From Planctomycetota bacterium (GTDB lineage: Bacteria; Planctomycetota; UBA11346): 64,000 bases of DNA. Within the stretch, counting starts at the first letter, position 1. Each line of letters begins with the position of its first letter. Location: NCBI GenBank assembly GCA_038231435.1, contig JBBRLJ010000017.1, positions 44,676-108,675 of the forward strand, written 5' to 3'. Shown here piece after piece: positions 47,501 through 53,500 of the stretch. The position numbers are program-made.

Positions 47501-50500
47501 CTGGGTGTGGTGGCGATGGTTCCGTCCGCTCGGCGCCTGGGAGAACCTCGCCTTCGGCGGCATCCTCGGCGGTGCGCTCGGCAACGGCTTCGATCGCGCG
47601 TGCGCGCGCCTCGACCTGTTCCATCTGCGCGGCGTCCGTGATTTCATCAACATCGATCTGGGTTTCTGGCCAGCCCACCCGTGGCCGACGTTCAACATCG
47701 CCGATGCCGGCATCACCGGCGGATTCCTCGTCCTGGTGGCGCTGACATTCCGCAAGCCGAAAGCCGCGACCGCCCATGCCGGCATCGTGGCCGTGTCCGA
47801 CCGCTAGCTTTTTTCTTCAGGTTTCTCTAGGAGCAGTTTCATGCGTTTCAATCCGATCGCCCGCGAATTGGTCTGCAAAGTGGTCTACTACGGCCCCGGA
47901 CTCGCCGGCAAGACCACCAACATGCAGGTGGTGCACGATCGCGTGCCGCCGCAGCAGGTCACCGAGCTGGTCAGCGTCGACACCCATTCCGAGCGCACGC
48001 TGCACTTCGACTGGCTCGCGCTCGATGTCGGCCAGGTCCAGGGCGTCAACGTGCGCTTCGAGATCTTCACCGTGCCCGGGCAGAATTATTACGCCGCGAC
48101 CCGCCGGCAGGTCCTGCAAGGCGCCGACGGCGTGGTGTTCATCGCCGACAGCCGCCGCGAGGCGCTCGACGAGAACATCGATTCGATGAACGAGATGCTG
48201 AACAACCTCAGGCACCACGGCCTGCCCGAGGACCTGCCGGTGGTGATGCAGTACAACAAGCAGGACCTGCCGAGCGCGCTGCGCCGCGAGCAGCTCGAGC
48301 CGCTGATGAACGTGCGCGCCTGGCCGAGCTTCGCCGCCACCGCCACCGCCGGCGACGGAGTGATGGAGACCGCGCACGCGATCTCGTCGCTGGTCGCCGA
48401 GCGCGCCACGCGCCTGGGCTCGCCGGTGCCCAGCGACGTCGCCCAGCAGAGCCAGCAGCCGGTTCCCGGCCAGAGCTGGCTGATCTCGTGCTACCGCTGC
48501 CAGACCATCCTCGAGGTCCCCAACGCCAACATCGGCTCGGTCTACACCTGCGGTGTATGCGGTTCGACGCTCGAGGTCACCGACACCGAGCGCGGCCTGA
48601 CCCGGGCGCCCTCGGCGAGCCAGGATGACAGCGGCGGCTACGCCCTGCAGAGCGCGTCGCAGTCGCCCGATGCGGGCACCAGCGCGCTCTCGGGCTCGCG
48701 CACCCAGCCGATCGAGCGCCAGGTGGCGCTCGCCGACGGCCCGGGTTTCGACCTCGAGGGCTACGACGTGGTCGCGACGCTCGACGAATCCGTTCAGGGC
48801 CGCCGCGTCCGCGTGCGCGAACGCGCCACCGGGCGCACGCTGCGCGCCTTCACCGTCTCGCCGCAGTTGATGCGCCAGCCCGGTTACCGCGACAACCTCG
48901 AGCCGTACGTGCGCATGGCCGGCCCGATCAAGCATCCCAACGCGCTGCCGCTCGCGAACCTGAGGCCGACCCACGACAGCGCCGTGCTCTTGAGCATCGA
49001 TCCGCCGGATCATGAGCCGCTCGCGCACGTGCTCGCGCGCCGCCGCGCGCTCGCGCCGCCGCACGCCATGGGCCTGTTGCGCCAGCTCGCGCTCGCGCTC
49101 GAGGAAGCCGCGCGGCATGGCGTCGTCCACGGCTGGCTGCGCCCCGACGTGGTGCTGGTCAGTCCCGACGGCAATGCGCTGCTCGACGAGCTGTGCCTGC
49201 CGAAGAACCACCGCTTCCTGGTGCGCGAGCTCTCCGGAGCCAGCGCCGCCACCGAATACTACCTGGCGCCCGAGCATCTCGGCGACGACTCGCGCAGCGA
49301 CCTGCGCTCGGACATCTTCGCGCTCGGCGCGCTGCTGTTCCGCATGATCACTGGCGAGGGTCTGGTCACCGGCTACAGCGCGCACGAGGCGCTGCACAAG
49401 GTGGTGGCCAACGGTCCGCGGCCGCTGCGTTCGACCCAGGCCGGCGTCAGCCGCGACCTGGACCTGTTCTATCAGCGGCTGGTGGCCGCCGAGCGCAAGG
49501 ACCGCTTCCAGAACTACCGCGAGGTCATCGACGCGCTCGACAAGTTCGGCGGCGGCGCCAAGCGGCAGACGCTGCGCCTGACCGGCACCGTGGCCAATAC
49601 CGGCACCGGTCGCGCGGGCCGCTCCACCGCCAACGCGCACATCGCTCGCCGCGCCACCGGCGGCTCGGGCAACTATGCCGGACGCCCGCGCTCGGGCGGC
49701 GGCACCGGCCCAGCCACCGGCTCCATCCGCAAGAAGGACGACAGCGGCGTGGTGATGGCGGTGGTGGTGGTGTGCGTGCTGCTCGCGGTCGCGCTGATCG
49801 CGGTGATGGTGATGAACCAGTCGCACTCGTCGGGCTACACCGGGCAGAGCCAGGCCGAGAGCCCGAAATCCAAGTTCGATCCGCCAACCGTCACGCGTCC
49901 GATCTCGAGCCCGCCGGCGGGATTCACCGGCGGCACCACGACCGGCGCCACGGCCGGAACGTCCGGTACGCCGCGCGCGGCAGTCACCACCGCGACCGGC
50001 GGGGCAACTGGCGGAGGGACTGGAGGCGAGGCGCCCGCGCCGCTCACCGCGGCCCAGCGCAGCGACCTGCTGCACCAGATCGCCGACATGCGCACCGAGG
50101 AGCGCTACCAGGCCGCGATCGGTCTGGCGGCGAAGTTCGATTCGGCCGAGGACCGCGACGCGCTGCCCAAGGCGATCCTCGCCCAACGCGACCTGCGCAA
50201 GAAGGACATCGAAGCCGCGGTGGTGAACAGCGTGGATCTCGAGCTGATCAAGAAGCTCGTGCAGCCCGCCCAGTCGACCTGGGGCCTGCCCGGCGACGCG
50301 GATTGGGCGAACAAGCTGGTGACCACCGCCGCGGCGCGCATCGCCGCGGCCACGCCGGAAGTCGGCCCCATCGGCGAAGTGCCGAAGCCCGTCCCGGTCG
50401 AGGTCTCGCCGATCACCGGTCGCCCGCTCGCGGTGCAGCCGGCAGTCGTTCCGCCGGTGACTCCGCCCGTCGCCACGCCGAACGCCACGCCGGCTTCGAC

Positions 50501-53500
50501 CCAGCCGGCCTCGCCAGCAACGACTCTGAGCGATCCGGCTGCCCAGTCGCTGATCCTGGTCGACCAGGCGCTGCTCGCCTACGCACCGATCGCGGCGCAG
50601 CAGGCGATCACCCCGCTCGACGCCCAGTCGGGCGAGGCGCGCGCGCTCAAGCACGAGATCGACTGGTGGAACCGCCGCATGCCGCTGCTGAATCGCGCGG
50701 CGCAATCCGGCAAGGTGAAGATGCGCATGCCGCATCCGACCACCGGCGAGATGTGGGACGTGCTCGGCGGCGACGCCACCAATGTCGATGTCTCGAATCC
50801 GGGCGGCAGCAAGTCGACCCTGCCGTGGACGCAGTTCGCTCCCAAGGACATCGCCAAAGTCTTCCAGGAAGCGGCCAACCTGCCTGACGTCACCGGCGAG
50901 GAGAACGCCACCGCGGCGATCATGCTGATGCTCGCGGGCGACCAGACCCAGGCCAGCCTGCAGATCCGCAAAGCCAAGCCGACCATCGACGCCGATCTCG
51001 GCGCCGACCTCGACACGCTGATGGGCCTGCACCGCCGCCGCGACCTGGTGGACGTGCTGGCCAAGGGCAGCGACGCGCTGAAATCGGGCAATGCCAAGGG
51101 CATCGCCGACGCGCTCGCCGAGCTGCGCAAGGCCGACAAGCCGACGCAGGCCGCGCTGGCGTCGCAGATCGCCAAGCTCGATGAAGCGCAGCAGAAGCTC
51201 GCCGTGGCCAAACCGGCGACGCCCGCGGGCACTCCGGCGGTGACGCAGGGCAAGGACAAGGTGACCTTCGACGGCCTCGATGACCTCACCGCGTTCCCGG
51301 ACACCGAGGGCAAGTGGCAGGTCAACGGCGGCGCGATCACCAACCAGGTCGACGCCTCGCGCCTGGCGCGCCACGATCTCGGCAACGCCAAATCGGTCTC
51401 GCTGCGCTTCCAGACCGCGGTGCTCAAGGGCACGCTGACCGTCGAGTTCCGCGGCGCCAAGGTGGCGCTCGACCTCGCCGCCAGCACCTACACGCCCAGC
51501 GGCAAGACCGCGGGGCGCCCGAAGGGCTTCGCGATCATCCCCAAGCTGCCGTACACGCTGCTGCTCGAGCGCAAGGACGACACCCGCACCACGCTGCAGT
51601 TCAACAACGGCGTCGAGAGCGCCGACATATCGGTCGGCGATCTCAGCGACTCGCTGACCATCACCACCGACGGCGGCGCGACCGTTGCAATCGACGAGGT
51701 CGAGGTCTTCCGCGATTCGAAGGGCTCGACCATGGCCGAGATGCGCAACGCGCTCAAGGTCACCGGCTGGGAGCCGATCGGCGGCGCCTACCTGCAGGCG
51801 CCCTCGATCATCCTGCCGTCGAGCCCCGGCACCTCGAGCGGCATCGCCACGCCGCTGCGCGACAACGTCTCTGGCTACAACTTCGAGGTCAAGGGCACCG
51901 GCGTGCTGCGCATCCAGCTCGGCCGCCTGTCCGACAAGGACGCGAAGTGGCTGCAGCTCGATGTCGAGCTGCCCAAGAATGCGCTGGAGGTCATGCCGCT
52001 GACGGTGCGCTGGACCGACAAGGGCATCGCCGTGTACGACGCCAAGGGCAACGAGAAGGTCAGCGCGGCGATCGCGGAGCGCTACACGCATCTGATGATC
52101 CTGGCGTTGAACCAGGCGACGCTCGTGAACGCGCCGAAGATCGAATACAAGGCGCCTTAGACTTCACGCGGCGCGCTCGGCCTGCGGCCTCGCTCCTTCG
52201 CTGCGCGAAGCCCGGCTGCGCCGGGGCGCCGCTTATCATCAGACGGGGGGTCGAGGACCCCCCGTCAACGCGCCTGTCGGCGCTGCTGCCTGGACTTCAC
52301 GCGCCACGCTCCGCCCTGCGGGCGTAGCCTCCCGCTGCGCGGGAGCGCCGGCTGCGCCGGCGGTGGCGCTATCTTCAGGCAAGGGGTCTTCGACCCCCCG
52401 TCAACGCGCCTGTCGGCGCTGCCCCCTTCGTGCTGGCTGACGTGTGCGGGGTTCCGGCTACGGCTCCCGCCTCCGCCTGCGTCGCGAGTTCACGCGGCGC
52501 GCTCGGCCTGCGGCCTCGCTCCTTCGCTGCGCGAAGCCCGGCTGCGCCGGGGCGCCGCTGGGATCTTCAGCGCCACCGCCGGCTCCGCCGGCGTTCCTGC
52601 ACAGCGGGAGGCTACGCCCGCAGGGCGGAGCGTGGCTCGTGAAGCCTTTGCAACATTACCGAAATTGGTCTTGATGACGTGTTCCGCGAGCTTCATCTCG
52701 GCGTCGGAACGTCGGTCCATACACCTCGAACGGTAGAACCACACTGATGCCTGAAACAGCGCGCTCGAAGACCTTTGTCGTCGATACCAACGTCCTGCTG
52801 CACAACCCGAACGCGCTCTTCGCCTTCACCGACAACCACGTGGTCATACCCATGATGGTGCTGGAAGAGCTCGACAAGTTCAAGACCGCGAACAACGAGC
52901 TCGGGCAGAATGCGCGCGAGTGCGCGCGGTCGCTCGACAAGCTGCGTGCGAAGGGGAGCCTGCGCGAAGGCGTGACCACGCCGCAGGGCGGGATCATCCA
53001 GGTGCTGCTGCGACACGACGAGATCGCCGGGATGCTGCCCGGGGTCAACGACAACCGCATCCTCGGCTGCGCGCACCTGCTCAAGCGCGAAGGGCACAAC
53101 GTGTTCTTCGTCTCGAAGGACATCAACGCGCGCATCAAGTCGGACGCGCTCGGGATCCCGAGCGAGGATTTCAAGAACCAGAAGGTCAATGCCGACGAGC
53201 TCTACACCGGTTGGGTCACCGTTACCGCGCCGAGCGAGACCGTCGACGCGCTTGCGGTCGACGAGGAGTTCTCGATCGACGGGCTGTTCGAGGCCGAGGA
53301 CGCGCCGTTGATGGCGAACCAGTTCATCGTGGTGAAGGACGAGGCCGACGAGGACCGCTACATCATCGGCATGTGGGATCCTGAGACCAAGAAGGCCAAG
53401 CGCATCGACGACGAGCAGCCCGAATTGTTCGGCGTCAGCCCTCGCAGCCCCGAGCAGCGCATGGCCTTCGCGCTGCTGCTGGACGACCGCATCAAGCTGG

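Follow-up and report, generated by a model that had tools for sequence, protein, structure and literature searches.

The analysed window, a stretch of 64,000 nucleotides, belongs to a metagenome-type assembly of a Planctomycetota bacterium (108 contigs, 87.6% complete). The first-pass annotation had placed a single-pass receptor gene at 47841..52160; these are window coordinates as given, with nothing to subtract, and we recovered the 1439-aa open reading frame of P0001 there (Table 1). Its GC content by codon position (0.68/0.49/0.92, GC3 0.92) is as in a real gene. The protein consists, in order, of an MglA G domain, a zinc ribbon, a pseudokinase, a transmembrane (TM) helix and about 780 residues beyond the membrane. 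The Pfam matches listed earlier were reproduced: Pkinase at 363-555 (6e-9), Arf at 62-182 (3e-8), Gtr1_RagA at 13-127, and the weak Roc (13-142) and Zn_ribbon_LysW (216-251, below cut-off). Of 12 related loci, 11 have lspA immediately ahead of the P0001 homologue and 9 have the PIN-PhoH gene after it; lspA is probably co-transcribed with the P0001 gene.

Table 1. Positions of the P0001 gene, its parts and its neighbours in the window
Feature	Coordinates	Strand	Basis
lspA (signal peptidase II)	47115..47807	+	Pfam Peptidase_A8 (3e-24); ends 33 bp upstream of P0001 gene
P0001, whole gene	47841..52160	+	ORF and translation, 1439 aa; 87 homologue clusters of full-length type
MglA-type G domain, residues 1-195	47841..48425	+	PDB MglA match, model match, Group 1 motifs
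Zinc ribbon, residues 213-258	48477..48614	+	C217-x2-C220-x16-C237-x2-C240; Zn_ribbon_LysW weak (0.0023, below cut-off)
Pseudokinase, residues 302-582	48744..49586	+	Pfam Pkinase; complete Hanks fold without catalytic Lys, Asp, Asn
Single TM helix, residues 632-662	49734..49826	+	Kyte-Doolittle peak 3.44
Periplasmic helical domain 1, residues 737-837	50049..50351	+	AlphaFold: helices only, pLDDT >90; no Pfam family
Periplasmic helical domain 2 with small beta insert, residues 899-1123	50535..51209	+	AlphaFold; no Pfam family
Beta-sandwich 1, residues 1135-1294	51243..51722	+	Concanavalin A-like lectin/glucanase fold; no Pfam family
Beta-sandwich 2, residues 1309-1439	51765..52157	+	All-beta, pLDDT >90
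PIN-PhoH ATPase gene	52747..54075	+	Pfam PIN_4 and PhoH; downstream neighbour

An assembly of this type might yield a chimeric artefact, or the gene might be decaying, with no coherent function in either case. We rejected this explanation, to which we give practically no credence, because 87 further protein clusters share the architecture, as do 37 strong loci in named MAG records and all 15 genomes sampled from the same taxonomic family, with conserved gene order and cytoplasmic median identities of 66-68%. The GTPase-zinc ribbon-pseudokinase-TM-ectodomain architecture is real and conserved. All members of the P0001 family that were found come from a single family-level lineage of uncultured Planctomycetota. 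Median identity to P0001 is 66% in the G domain, 67% in the zinc ribbon and 68% in the pseudokinase, where conservation is highest, versus 31-36% in the four ectodomain modules (about 67% versus 33% overall). Faster evolution of the periplasmic part is expected of any envelope protein, sensor or not. Conservation counts below refer to 88 members of the family.

The G domain, previously called MglA-like, proved closer to MglA than that term implies. Residues 4-189 matched MglA of M. xanthus and T. thermophilus at E 2.5e-48 in a phmmer search of PDB chains, and the AlphaFold model of residues 1-200 superimposed on MglA 5ymx with Z 30.2 and rmsd 2.3 over 200 aligned residues. Its motifs are the P-loop GPGLAGKT, R52-T53 in switch I, TVPGQ (77-81) and NKQD (139-142); they are conserved in 83-84 of the 88 members, the remaining 4-5 being gapped there and one carrying TVPGV. 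An Arg beside the G2 Thr and TVPGQ are described as Group 1 MglA hallmarks (PMC4316618). Judged by these motifs, the domain is of Group 1 type and retains all residues for GTP binding and hydrolysis. In an unrooted tree the family's G domains form one long-branched group (SH-aLRT 100), about one change per site from the other sampled MglA domains. The MglA reference survey, as its text states, excluded every sequence above 240 aa (PMC4316618). Compared with Group 1 MglA (M. xanthus and T. thermophilus MglA; SofG) and its GAP MglB, P0001 has the same fold, intrinsic Arg, TVPGQ and NKxD, and its genome also has Roadblock (MglB-type) genes. However, instead of standing free at 195 aa, MglA here forms the N-terminal domain of a membrane protein of 1439 aa, and the gene neighbourhood has no mglB.

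The three Roadblock matches in the genome all adjoin a second MglA, P0216, on contig C33. P0216 carries a C-terminal hydrophobic segment (358-395) and is thus predicted to be tail-anchored; such a segment occurs in 25 of 31 long MglA-like proteins. Divergent to this MglA/Roadblock cluster lies a gene for an active Pkinase-TPR protein.

A search with residues 1-200 among longer proteins gave 1141 matches. The kinase-bearing homologues noted before were found again in substance, since 89 of the best 90 matches (354-1575 aa long) have a kinase Pfam family, and the one exception is a 354-aa fragment. The fusions of the same G domain to DnaA-like ATPases, an ion channel and histidine kinases that the first-pass annotation mentioned did not appear among the 120 matches listed of the 1141. 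Fusions of MglA to a kinase whose HRDxKxxN and D[FL]G motifs are intact make up 26 clusters in other Planctomycetota. Such fusion proteins (for example P0217 on L072; P0218-P0243) resemble P0001 in having an N-terminal MglA (TVPGQ, NKxD) followed by a Hanks kinase, and often in having a membrane segment, which in them is C-terminal. They differ in keeping the catalytic motifs, in their length of 620-1131 aa and in the absence of the P0001 ectodomain; a pattern search found no CxxC...CxxC ribbon in them, and their G domains fall outside the P0001 family group in the unrooted tree.

Of the 88 members, 84 have the first CxxC of the zinc ribbon, and conservation reaches at least 90% at each of C217, C220, C237 and C240; in the AlphaFold model of P0001 the ribbon has pLDDT 91-95 and is flanked by disordered linkers. 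The pseudokinase that follows matched PknE/PknB sequences in the PDB at 1e-16 to 1e-12, and its best structural matches are PknB of S. aureus (4eqm, Z 27.1) and M. tuberculosis (1mru, Z 26.7). Alignment with two canonical kinases agreed with the motifs described earlier: HRDxKxxN is replaced by HGWLRPDV and VAxKxL by LRAFTV, and APE is retained. D-E-L aligns with G-D-L, thus the DFG Asp position is Glu450. By this alignment P0001 lacks the beta3 Lys, HRD Asp, Asn and DFG Asp; Trp occupies the catalytic Asp position and, across the family, Val, Ala or Cys occupies that of the Asn. The Gly-rich loop is degraded to LDESxQGRRxRV. The near-invariance claimed for H-G-W-L-R-P holds for H430, W432, R434 and P435, which are unchanged in 88 of 88 members, as are D449, G466, S468, T471, E472, Y474, L475, P477 and E478. 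By model match the domain is complete in fold, but by its motifs it is catalytically dead.

A G-domain-regulated nucleotide binding or non-canonical catalysis through relocated residues, modelled on LRRK2, whose kinase Roc is thought to regulate, might still operate here. D449-E450 stands at the metal-binding position, the nearly invariant R335 lies on the strand of the missing Lys, two residues ahead of it, and bacterial pseudokinases with novel activities such as SidJ and SelO are described in a review (PMC12599244). We consider this very improbable, however, given the reduced Gly-rich loop, the loss of the beta3 Lys and the Asp to Trp and Asn to Val/Ala/Cys replacements, and the same review describes families degraded in all three motifs as almost always lacking ATP binding (PMC12599244). 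The activation segment G466-x-S468-A-A-T471-E-Y-Y-L-A-P-E478 is also unchanged in 88 of 88 members. An active Ser/Thr kinase could phosphorylate S468/T471 and thereby gate MglA, the ectodomain serving merely for localisation. The Pkinase-TPR gene beside the MglA/Roadblock cluster and the relatives in which MglA is fused to active kinases would suit such a scaffold, but invariance of the segment equally fits a protein-binding surface or a structural role, and we regard this explanation as doubtful.

The single TM helix claimed at 636-657 (peak 3.4) is borne out, the hydropathy peak at 632-662 being the sole such segment in P0001; a TM-like segment was found in 88 of 88 members. Basic to acidic residues (K+R/D+E) stand at 5/2 over the 30 residues preceding the helix and at 3/2 on its C side, and the larger number of basic residues before the helix supports the predicted N-in, C-out topology. 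The ectodomain model has a pLDDT of 86.7. AlphaFold pTM values of 0.53 and 0.48 make the relative placement of the P0001 domains unreliable. Look-alikes of helical domain 2 in the ESM Atlas are all unnamed PVC-group proteins. Beta-sandwich 1 matched lectin and CBM domains with Z 13-16.6 in VIA-align (sialidase BT_1020 5mqs, ERGIC-53, CBM66 and the DUF1080 entry 3hbk), and, in support of beta-sandwich 2, a tandem match to BT3469 (4jqt) spans residues 449-749 of the model. A Pfam scan found no carbohydrate-binding family in the ectodomain. By sequence the ectodomain is confined to the P0001 family, with 63 matches among 1.84 billion representatives. Thirty of 50 new matches were scanned: 17 have Pkinase, one (P0215) is unrelated, and the other 12, which match no Pfam family, measure 504-788 aa and may be fragments. 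The scanned matches of at least 1000 aa all have Pkinase, P0215 excepted.

The ectodomain has at least 550 residues in 91 of 108 motif-bearing relatives, and three (P0125, P0128 and P0129) terminate at most 24 residues past the TM helix; the cytoplasmic module can therefore occur with no sensor attached. These three proteins would fit an inside-out landmark or adhesion link, in which the ectodomain is fixed at a wall or outer-envelope site and MglA, cycled by a cytoplasmic GAP and GEF, times the recruitment of effectors such as pilus or division/budding machinery, with no information passing from outside to inside. MglA-GTP marks the poles and focal adhesion complexes of Myxococcus, and MglA tethering looks general in the phylum, as in P0216 and most of the long MglA-like proteins. 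On the other hand, an ectodomain of that size in most relatives is costly for a mere anchor, and the pseudokinase, so highly conserved, would be superfluous in one. We consider this arrangement rather unlikely.

The ROCO/LRRK analogy drawn by the first-pass annotation stands as loose logic, in that the same chain carries a Ras-superfamily G domain and, after it, a kinase fold. It does not go further, because a Pfam scan found no COR or LRR domain in P0001, whose G domain is Group 1 MglA and not of Roc/Rup type (Roc is described as grouping with the Rup clade; PMC4316618), and its kinase is dead and membrane-anchored. The MglA-active kinase fusions and the M. xanthus MglA-MasK pair are better comparators, the latter being the closest experimental precedent. 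Yeast two-hybrid assays show binding of MglA to MasK, a membrane-associated kinase; masK lies beside mglBA and has yielded an allele-specific suppressor of mglA8 (PMC3546991). In the MasABK complex, as described there, an MglA switch is paired physically and functionally with a membrane-associated Hanks-type kinase, and the complex includes periplasmic parts (PMC3546991); P0001 appears to hold the same pairing in one polypeptide. MasK is an active, separate kinase in that account (PMC3546991), whereas the kinase of P0001 is dead, fused, separated from MglA by a zinc ribbon and provided with its own ectodomain. PknB-like receptor kinases also have a kinase fold followed by one TM helix and then extracytoplasmic domains, but they have catalytic residues and no N-terminal MglA or zinc ribbon, and their sensor is PASTA rather than the lectin-like one modelled here. 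The GLW pseudokinases are likewise described as membrane-associated, with three degraded catalytic motifs, Trp in the former HRD and a C-terminal TM helix (PMC12599244). They are mostly proteobacterial, with G-L-W for HRD and a poly-Leu (LLLL/W) beta3 strand (O'Boyle et al. preprint; PMC12599244), whereas P0001, from Planctomycetota, has H-G-W and x-R-A-L/F. By the published descriptions P0001 thus differs from GLW, though it may still belong to an atlas family. The accessible text of the O'Boyle et al. atlas preprint and of the review (PMC12599244) makes no mention of a GTPase domain in the GLW family.

The anatomy behind the earlier receptor reading (MglA with a conserved dead kinase, one TM helix and a large folded ectodomain) was confirmed by sequence and models and is under strong selection; receptor signalling through the GTPase is plausible. 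We tentatively favour, at a little short of an even chance, that P0001 works as a coupling protein across the membrane, with a membrane-tethered MglA switch at its core. The MglA-MasK precedent, the 26 fusion clusters and the three Roadblock genes as partners in trans support this coupling role; the members without an ectodomain, in which the sensor is not essential to the module, the lack of a Roadblock gene in the P0001 neighbourhood of this 87.6% complete genome, and a lectin-like fold that alone carries no information on ligand count against it. We found no literature description of an architecture combining MglA, zinc ribbon, dead kinase and lectin-like ectodomain. Also new are the predicted outer fold of two helical domains and two concanavalin-like beta-sandwiches, the conservation contrast between cytoplasmic part and ectodomain, the confinement to one family-level lineage, the lspA linkage, the joining of MglA to catalytically intact kinases in other Planctomycetota and the tail-anchored second MglA beside MglB (Roadblock) genes. 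We read P0001 as a Rosetta-stone fusion of the MglA-kinase partnership in which the kinase has turned pseudokinase. In the proposed relay, the ectodomain would bind a glycan of the cell's own envelope or surroundings, and its binding or clustering would be passed through the TM helix to the pseudokinase. The latter may provide a rigid platform for docking and allosteric control, as MasK may for MglA in Myxococcus, and determine the nucleotide state of the fused MglA or its access to effectors; the Roadblock proteins encoded with the second MglA probably stimulate GTP hydrolysis in trans. As output, MglA effectors would be recruited locally, at the membrane site of ectodomain engagement.

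The MglA-pseudokinase gene has a third-position GC of 0.92, typical of genuine genes in this region (window GC 67.6%). The Pfam matches reported by the first-pass annotation were reproduced for its product (Pkinase at residues 363-555, Arf at 62-182, Gtr1_RagA, and weak Roc and LysW-type zinc ribbon matches, the latter at 216-251), and NCBIfam added just partial kinase matches far under their cut-offs. A search of PDB chains aligned residues 4-189 with MglA of Myxococcus xanthus and of Thermus thermophilus, both of solved structure (E 2.5e-48). In an AlphaFold model built on the 88 sequences of the family (mean pLDDT 85.1), residues 1-200 superimposed on M. 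xanthus MglA with Z 30.2 and rmsd 2.3. Coordinates of the features are collected in the table.

Features of the MglA-pseudokinase protein, its gene neighbourhood and the MglA proteins compared with it
Feature	Position	Strand	Remark
MglA-pseudokinase gene	window 47841..52160	+	ORF of 1439 codons
Zinc ribbon	window 48489-48560	+	residues 217-240
Helical domain	residues 737-837		model of 690-1439
Disordered Pro-rich linker	between helical domains 737-837 and 899-1123		model of 690-1439
Helical domain with small beta insert	residues 899-1123		model of 690-1439
Beta-sandwich 1	residues 1135-1294		model of 690-1439
Beta-sandwich 2	residues 1309-1439		model of 690-1439
TPR/PF03118 protein gene	window 44311-45636	-	441 aa
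Gene of unknown family	window 54241-55089	-	
T2SSE-type ATPase gene	window 57500-58765		
23S rRNA intervening-sequence protein gene	window 59041-59394	+	PF05635
Tyrosine recombinase/integrase gene	window 61885-62964	-	
Second MglA of the genome (P0216)	contig C33, L006 5271-6854		527 aa; locus L006 4017-11268
Distant full-length match (P0217)	G021, L072 2513-4621	-	702 aa; MglA domain and live kinase

Two features characterize Group 1 MglA proteins in the relevant passages of a survey of prokaryotic small GTPases: an intrinsic arginine beside the G2 threonine, and TVPGQ as the G3 motif (PMC4316618). Both are found here. R52 and T53, within SERTLHFD, align with the R-T of the M. xanthus and T. 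thermophilus proteins, and x-E/Q-R occupies this site in at least 82 of the 88 members, with gaps in four. G3 reads TVPGQ at 77-81 instead of DxxGQ; 76 members have TVPGQ, six TIPGQ, one MVPGQ, one TVPGV and four a gap. The P-loop GxxxxGK[ST] reads GPGLAGKT at 18-25 and is present in 83/88 members (gaps in five), and an NKQD motif is also present. Overall, the G-domain motifs are kept in 83-84 of the 88 members, the remainder being gaps in four or five and TVPGV in one. Because the Group 1 motifs, P-loop and NKQD are retained, the G domain looks competent as a GTP switch. The protein thus has the catalytic features of Group 1 but differs from it in size and in coupling to mglB. Group 1 proteins are single domains of 150-240 residues with a Roadblock gene at most four genes away; here the G domain occupies residues 1-195 of 1439, and no Roadblock gene lies among the 11 neighbouring genes (38.6-60.6 kb). 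The same survey left out sequences longer than 240 aa, which make up 39 of the 488 members of the MglA clade (PMC4316618).

The ROCO/LRRK analogy drawn in the first-pass annotation holds as loose logic only, and the protein is not a ROCO protein. No COR or LRR family was matched at E up to 1, Roc scored 18.7 bits against a cut-off of 27, and residues 196-301, where COR would follow, are made up of the zinc ribbon and disordered linkers. In contrast to ROCO proteins, the G domain belongs to the MglA family and not to the Rup/Roc clade. The ribbon stands about 20 residues behind the G domain and is a predicted metal site with two CxxC knuckles, C217-x2-C220 and C237-x2-C240; 84/88 members keep the first of these, and each of the four cysteines is at least 90% conserved. 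It is modelled as four short strands (pLDDT 91-95) between two disordered linkers, and its LysW-type Pfam match is below cut-off. The C-x2-C-x16-C-x2-C spacing is also that of the ArfGAP zinc finger. Since no ArfGap Pfam match was obtained at E up to 1, assignment to that type was rejected and the spacing is probably a coincidence.

Residues 302-582 form a complete bilobal kinase fold in the AlphaFold model, closest to PknB of Staphylococcus aureus (Z 27.1, 258 residues aligned) and of Mycobacterium tuberculosis (Z 26.7); Pkinase (PF00069) scored 36.1 bits against a cut-off of 31.7. The protein has the fold of Hanks kinases but not their catalytic residues. In an alignment with two canonical kinases (P0089 and P0090), the Gly-rich loop reads LDESVQGRRVRV, and F337, for which most relatives have Leu, takes the place of the beta3 Lys. 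HGWLRPDV replaces HRDxKxxN, with W432 at the HRD Asp and V437 at the catalytic-loop Asn, and E450 stands at the DFG Asp position directly after an invariant D449 (88/88). These replacements are conserved across the family. The near-invariance of H-G-W-L-R-P in the first-pass annotation was borne out, H430, W432, R434 and P435 being identical in 88/88. Since the Gly-rich loop, beta3 Lys, HRD Asp, Asn and DFG Asp are all replaced, the domain is classed as a pseudokinase, and it is predicted from its sequence to be dead as a phosphotransferase. That the conserved fold, with D449 kept and the canonical residues gone, serves as a non-canonical enzyme is very improbable in our estimate.

No part of the protein is more conserved than the pseudokinase, which is under strong constraint. 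Median identity to the window protein is 68% for this domain, 66% for the G domain and 67% for the ribbon, and it is 31-36% for the four ectodomain modules. The activation segment contains eight residues invariant in 88/88 members (G466, S468, T471, E472, Y474, L475, P477 and E478). A scaffold regulated by phosphorylation would combine this constrained segment with a kinase fold stripped of its catalytic residues; we regard it as unlikely, less so than a non-canonical enzyme. Complex prediction of residues 302-582 with residues 1-258 gave a score of 0.00 in two runs with no controls and says nothing either way.

The sole transmembrane candidate is the hydrophobic segment 632-662 (Kyte-Doolittle 3.44), and the 30 residues before it contain five basic and two acidic ones. 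A similar segment is found in 88/88 members. An N-in/C-out topology is likely because the G domain needs cytoplasmic GTP. Residues 690-1439 were modelled separately (pLDDT 86.7). With pTM values of 0.53 and 0.48, the two AlphaFold models do not reliably show how the domains lie with respect to one another. Beta-sandwich 1 (model residues 446-605) was compared with 50 listed chains, giving Z 16.6 to 12.3 over about 150 residues with rmsd 2.5-3.4. Its lectin and carbohydrate-binding look-alikes (Z 13-16.6) include the sialidase lectin domain 5mqs, ERGIC-53, CBM66 and the DUF1080 entry 3hbk. As modelled, the sandwich has a concanavalin A-like lectin/glucanase fold, a statement about fold alone and not about binding. 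The two sandwiches in tandem resemble BT3469 (4jqt), and beta-sandwich 1 matched 3hbk with Z 13.2. When the 750-residue model was searched against the PDB with Foldseek, the best match was again the tandem DUF1080-type 4jqt (E 1.5e-9). The many clostridial neurotoxin matches that came after it had TM scores of 0.13-0.18 and rmsd above 20, and they were set aside as a generic jelly-roll and long-helix resemblance. By sequence, neither sandwich matched the DUF1080/3-keto-disaccharide hydrolase family in Pfam at E up to 10, and the four ectodomain pieces gave no Pfam match under E 0.07. Residues 895-1125 matched only unnamed PVC-group clusters in the ESM Atlas.

A sequence search with the ectodomain returned 63 matches among 1.84 billion representatives. 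Thirty of 50 new matches were scanned; Pkinase was found in 17 and no Pfam family in 12, and one was unrelated, the 12 without Pfam families all being 504-788 aa long and perhaps fragments. Judged by these searches, the ectodomain is private to the MglA-pseudokinase family. The part beyond the membrane has at least 550 residues in 91 of 108 motif-bearing members. Three members (P0125, P0128 and P0129) have fewer than 60 residues there and for that reason are taken as tail-anchored forms. The protein could also be a fixed landmark whose switch is cycled from inside the cell, with the outer part serving to hold it in place; this seems rather unlikely to us.

The same architecture was found in 87 further clusters of 795-1482 aa in a search of 5.8 billion clusters. 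Named homologues are called 'protein kinase', 'MglA' or 'hypothetical protein' and come from Planctomycetota, in line with the database labels noted earlier. GTDB species representatives yielded 37 strong loci, all from uncultured MAG records. Among 301 genomes sampled from the phylum, each of the 15 belonging to the same family as the window gave matches, 11 of them in one alignment spanning nearly all of the 600-residue query. Outside that family, one genome among the matches listed had a full-length match (31% identity), and the remaining listed matches were to the G domain alone (37-53%). A few genomes contain two copies (L039/L065, L040/L063 and G049 on contig C11), with identities to the window protein of 67 vs 55%, 65 vs 41% and, over a partial stretch in G049, 41 vs 52%; the window's genome has one.

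In P0217, the distant full-length match, an MglA domain is followed by a linker and a kinase, and a hydrophobic segment lies near the C-terminus. Its kinase motifs are intact (LGEGGMGAVY, VVKVLK, HRDVKADN and DFG), and its homologues include 26 clusters pairing TVPGQ with HRDxKxxN and D[FL]G. A pattern search found the CxxC...CxxC ribbon in none of these 26 clusters. The active-kinase fusions (P0217-P0243) are 620-1131 aa long, some with a TM segment and some with TPR repeats. Next to P0217, on the opposite strand, lies an 804-aa reading frame that by eye resembles a PilB/GspE-type ATPase. The 23 pseudokinase-family rows of an unrooted 92-row tree of G domains fall into one long-branched group (SH-aLRT 100), apart from the active-kinase fusions and from the tail-anchored MglA proteins. 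The tree has no outgroup and so is silent on a shared origin of the two kinds of fusion.

The genome's three Robl_LC7 matches all lie on contig C33, around the second MglA, P0216. This protein, in which a Pro/Gln-rich linker leads from the G domain to a hydrophobic segment (358-395) and then a Pro/Ala-rich tail, is predicted to be membrane-tethered and tail-anchored. One of the three Roadblock genes is fused to TPR repeats, and the cluster also encodes a PATAN(DUF4388)-TPR-PQQ protein and, divergently, an active kinase that carries TPR repeats; the arrangement recalls masABK-mglBA of Myxococcus. As 25 of 31 long MglA-like proteins carry a C-terminal TM-like segment, membrane-tethered MglA may be common in Planctomycetota.

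In the window, lspA ends 33 bp upstream of the MglA-pseudokinase gene on the same strand, which suggests co-transcription, and a PIN-PhoH gene lies 586 bp downstream. In 11 of 12 related loci lspA directly precedes the homologue, and in nine PIN-PhoH lies downstream. The conserved order may reflect shared ancestry because all the genomes compared belong to one family. Rfam found nothing at gathering scores over the whole window. A scan of 46900-52900 was uninformative, with no promoter-like site and three terminator-like sites against 2.2 expected. The T2SSE-type ATPase gene was considered as a link to pili and rejected, having no match in the fetched stretches of the 12 related loci. The 441-aa protein with TPR repeats and two RNA polymerase alpha C-terminal domain matches (PF03118, E 1.6e-29) is 74-76% identical in three related loci. 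A stretch of about 2.4 kb (55100-57500), bounded by the gene of unknown family and the ATPase gene, has just short plus-strand ORFs of 140-249 aa; they matched no Pfam family and none passed the codon-position GC filter. For these ORFs and the neighbouring genes, no family was found except the integrase, which, like the 23S rRNA intervening-sequence protein gene, lies near the window end.

In M. xanthus, MglA binds MasK, a membrane-associated kinase encoded beside mglBA that, as described in the relevant passages, is itself in complex with a lipoprotein and an integral membrane protein (PMC3546991). By analogy with this binding, we read the gene as a fusion of an MglA-MasK-type partnership. 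The receptor with a GTPase output proposed by the first-pass annotation is in part supported, by the switch-competent MglA domain, the constrained dead kinase, the single helix and the variable lectin-like ectodomain; its ROCO side is not, COR being absent. We tentatively favour a coupling device, most likely an outside-in receptor, and put its chance a little short of even. In such a device, the MglA domain would be the switch, the pseudokinase a docking and relay platform and the ectodomain a glycan-sensing or glycan-holding part, and the Roadblock proteins of the C33 locus might act as a GAP in trans. The more specific proposal is of a prokaryotic single-chain receptor class in which a ligand signal from the lectin-like ectodomain would travel by way of one helix and a dead kinase and reach a Ras-superfamily (MglA) switch in the same chain, covalently joined to them. 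It is doubtful, and slightly less so than the fixed landmark. If true, a bacterium would read an external or envelope glycan directly as a local state of the GTPase, with neither two-component nor phosphorylation chemistry involved.

Seven pseudokinase families are described in a preprint atlas of bacterial Ser/Thr kinases, and the same ones are covered in PMC12599244. The nearest, GLW, occurs mostly in Proteobacteria; it reads G-L-W where HRD is expected, and its beta3 strand is poly-Leu. The passages on GLW in the two sources mention no GTPase domain (atlas preprint, PMC12599244). Our family differs in having HGW and xRAL/F, a distinction drawn from the review's description of GLW, and it may already be binned in the atlas. 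In the literature searched, we came upon no account of a fusion between MglA and a kinase or pseudokinase. The MglA switch and the receptor-type Hanks pseudokinase are known kinds newly combined, and the combination is conserved in one uncultured planctomycete lineage.

The well-defined, strongly constrained family joins the few known bacterial pseudokinases. Residues 1-600 offer a compact construct, one soluble bacterial protein, in which to study how a kinase fold regulates a small GTPase, a question still open in ROCO/LRRK2 biology. MglA is the model bacterial polarity GTPase, and to our knowledge the inputs into it outside Myxococcus are largely unknown. This conserved fusion, which links MglA to a membrane pseudokinase and an ectodomain, provides genetic evidence for cooperation between MglA switches and kinase folds of the Hanks type. 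It extends the little-studied MglA-MasK link to a general one and hints at coupling between the envelope and a polarity switch in Planctomycetota, a phylum of unusual cell biology.
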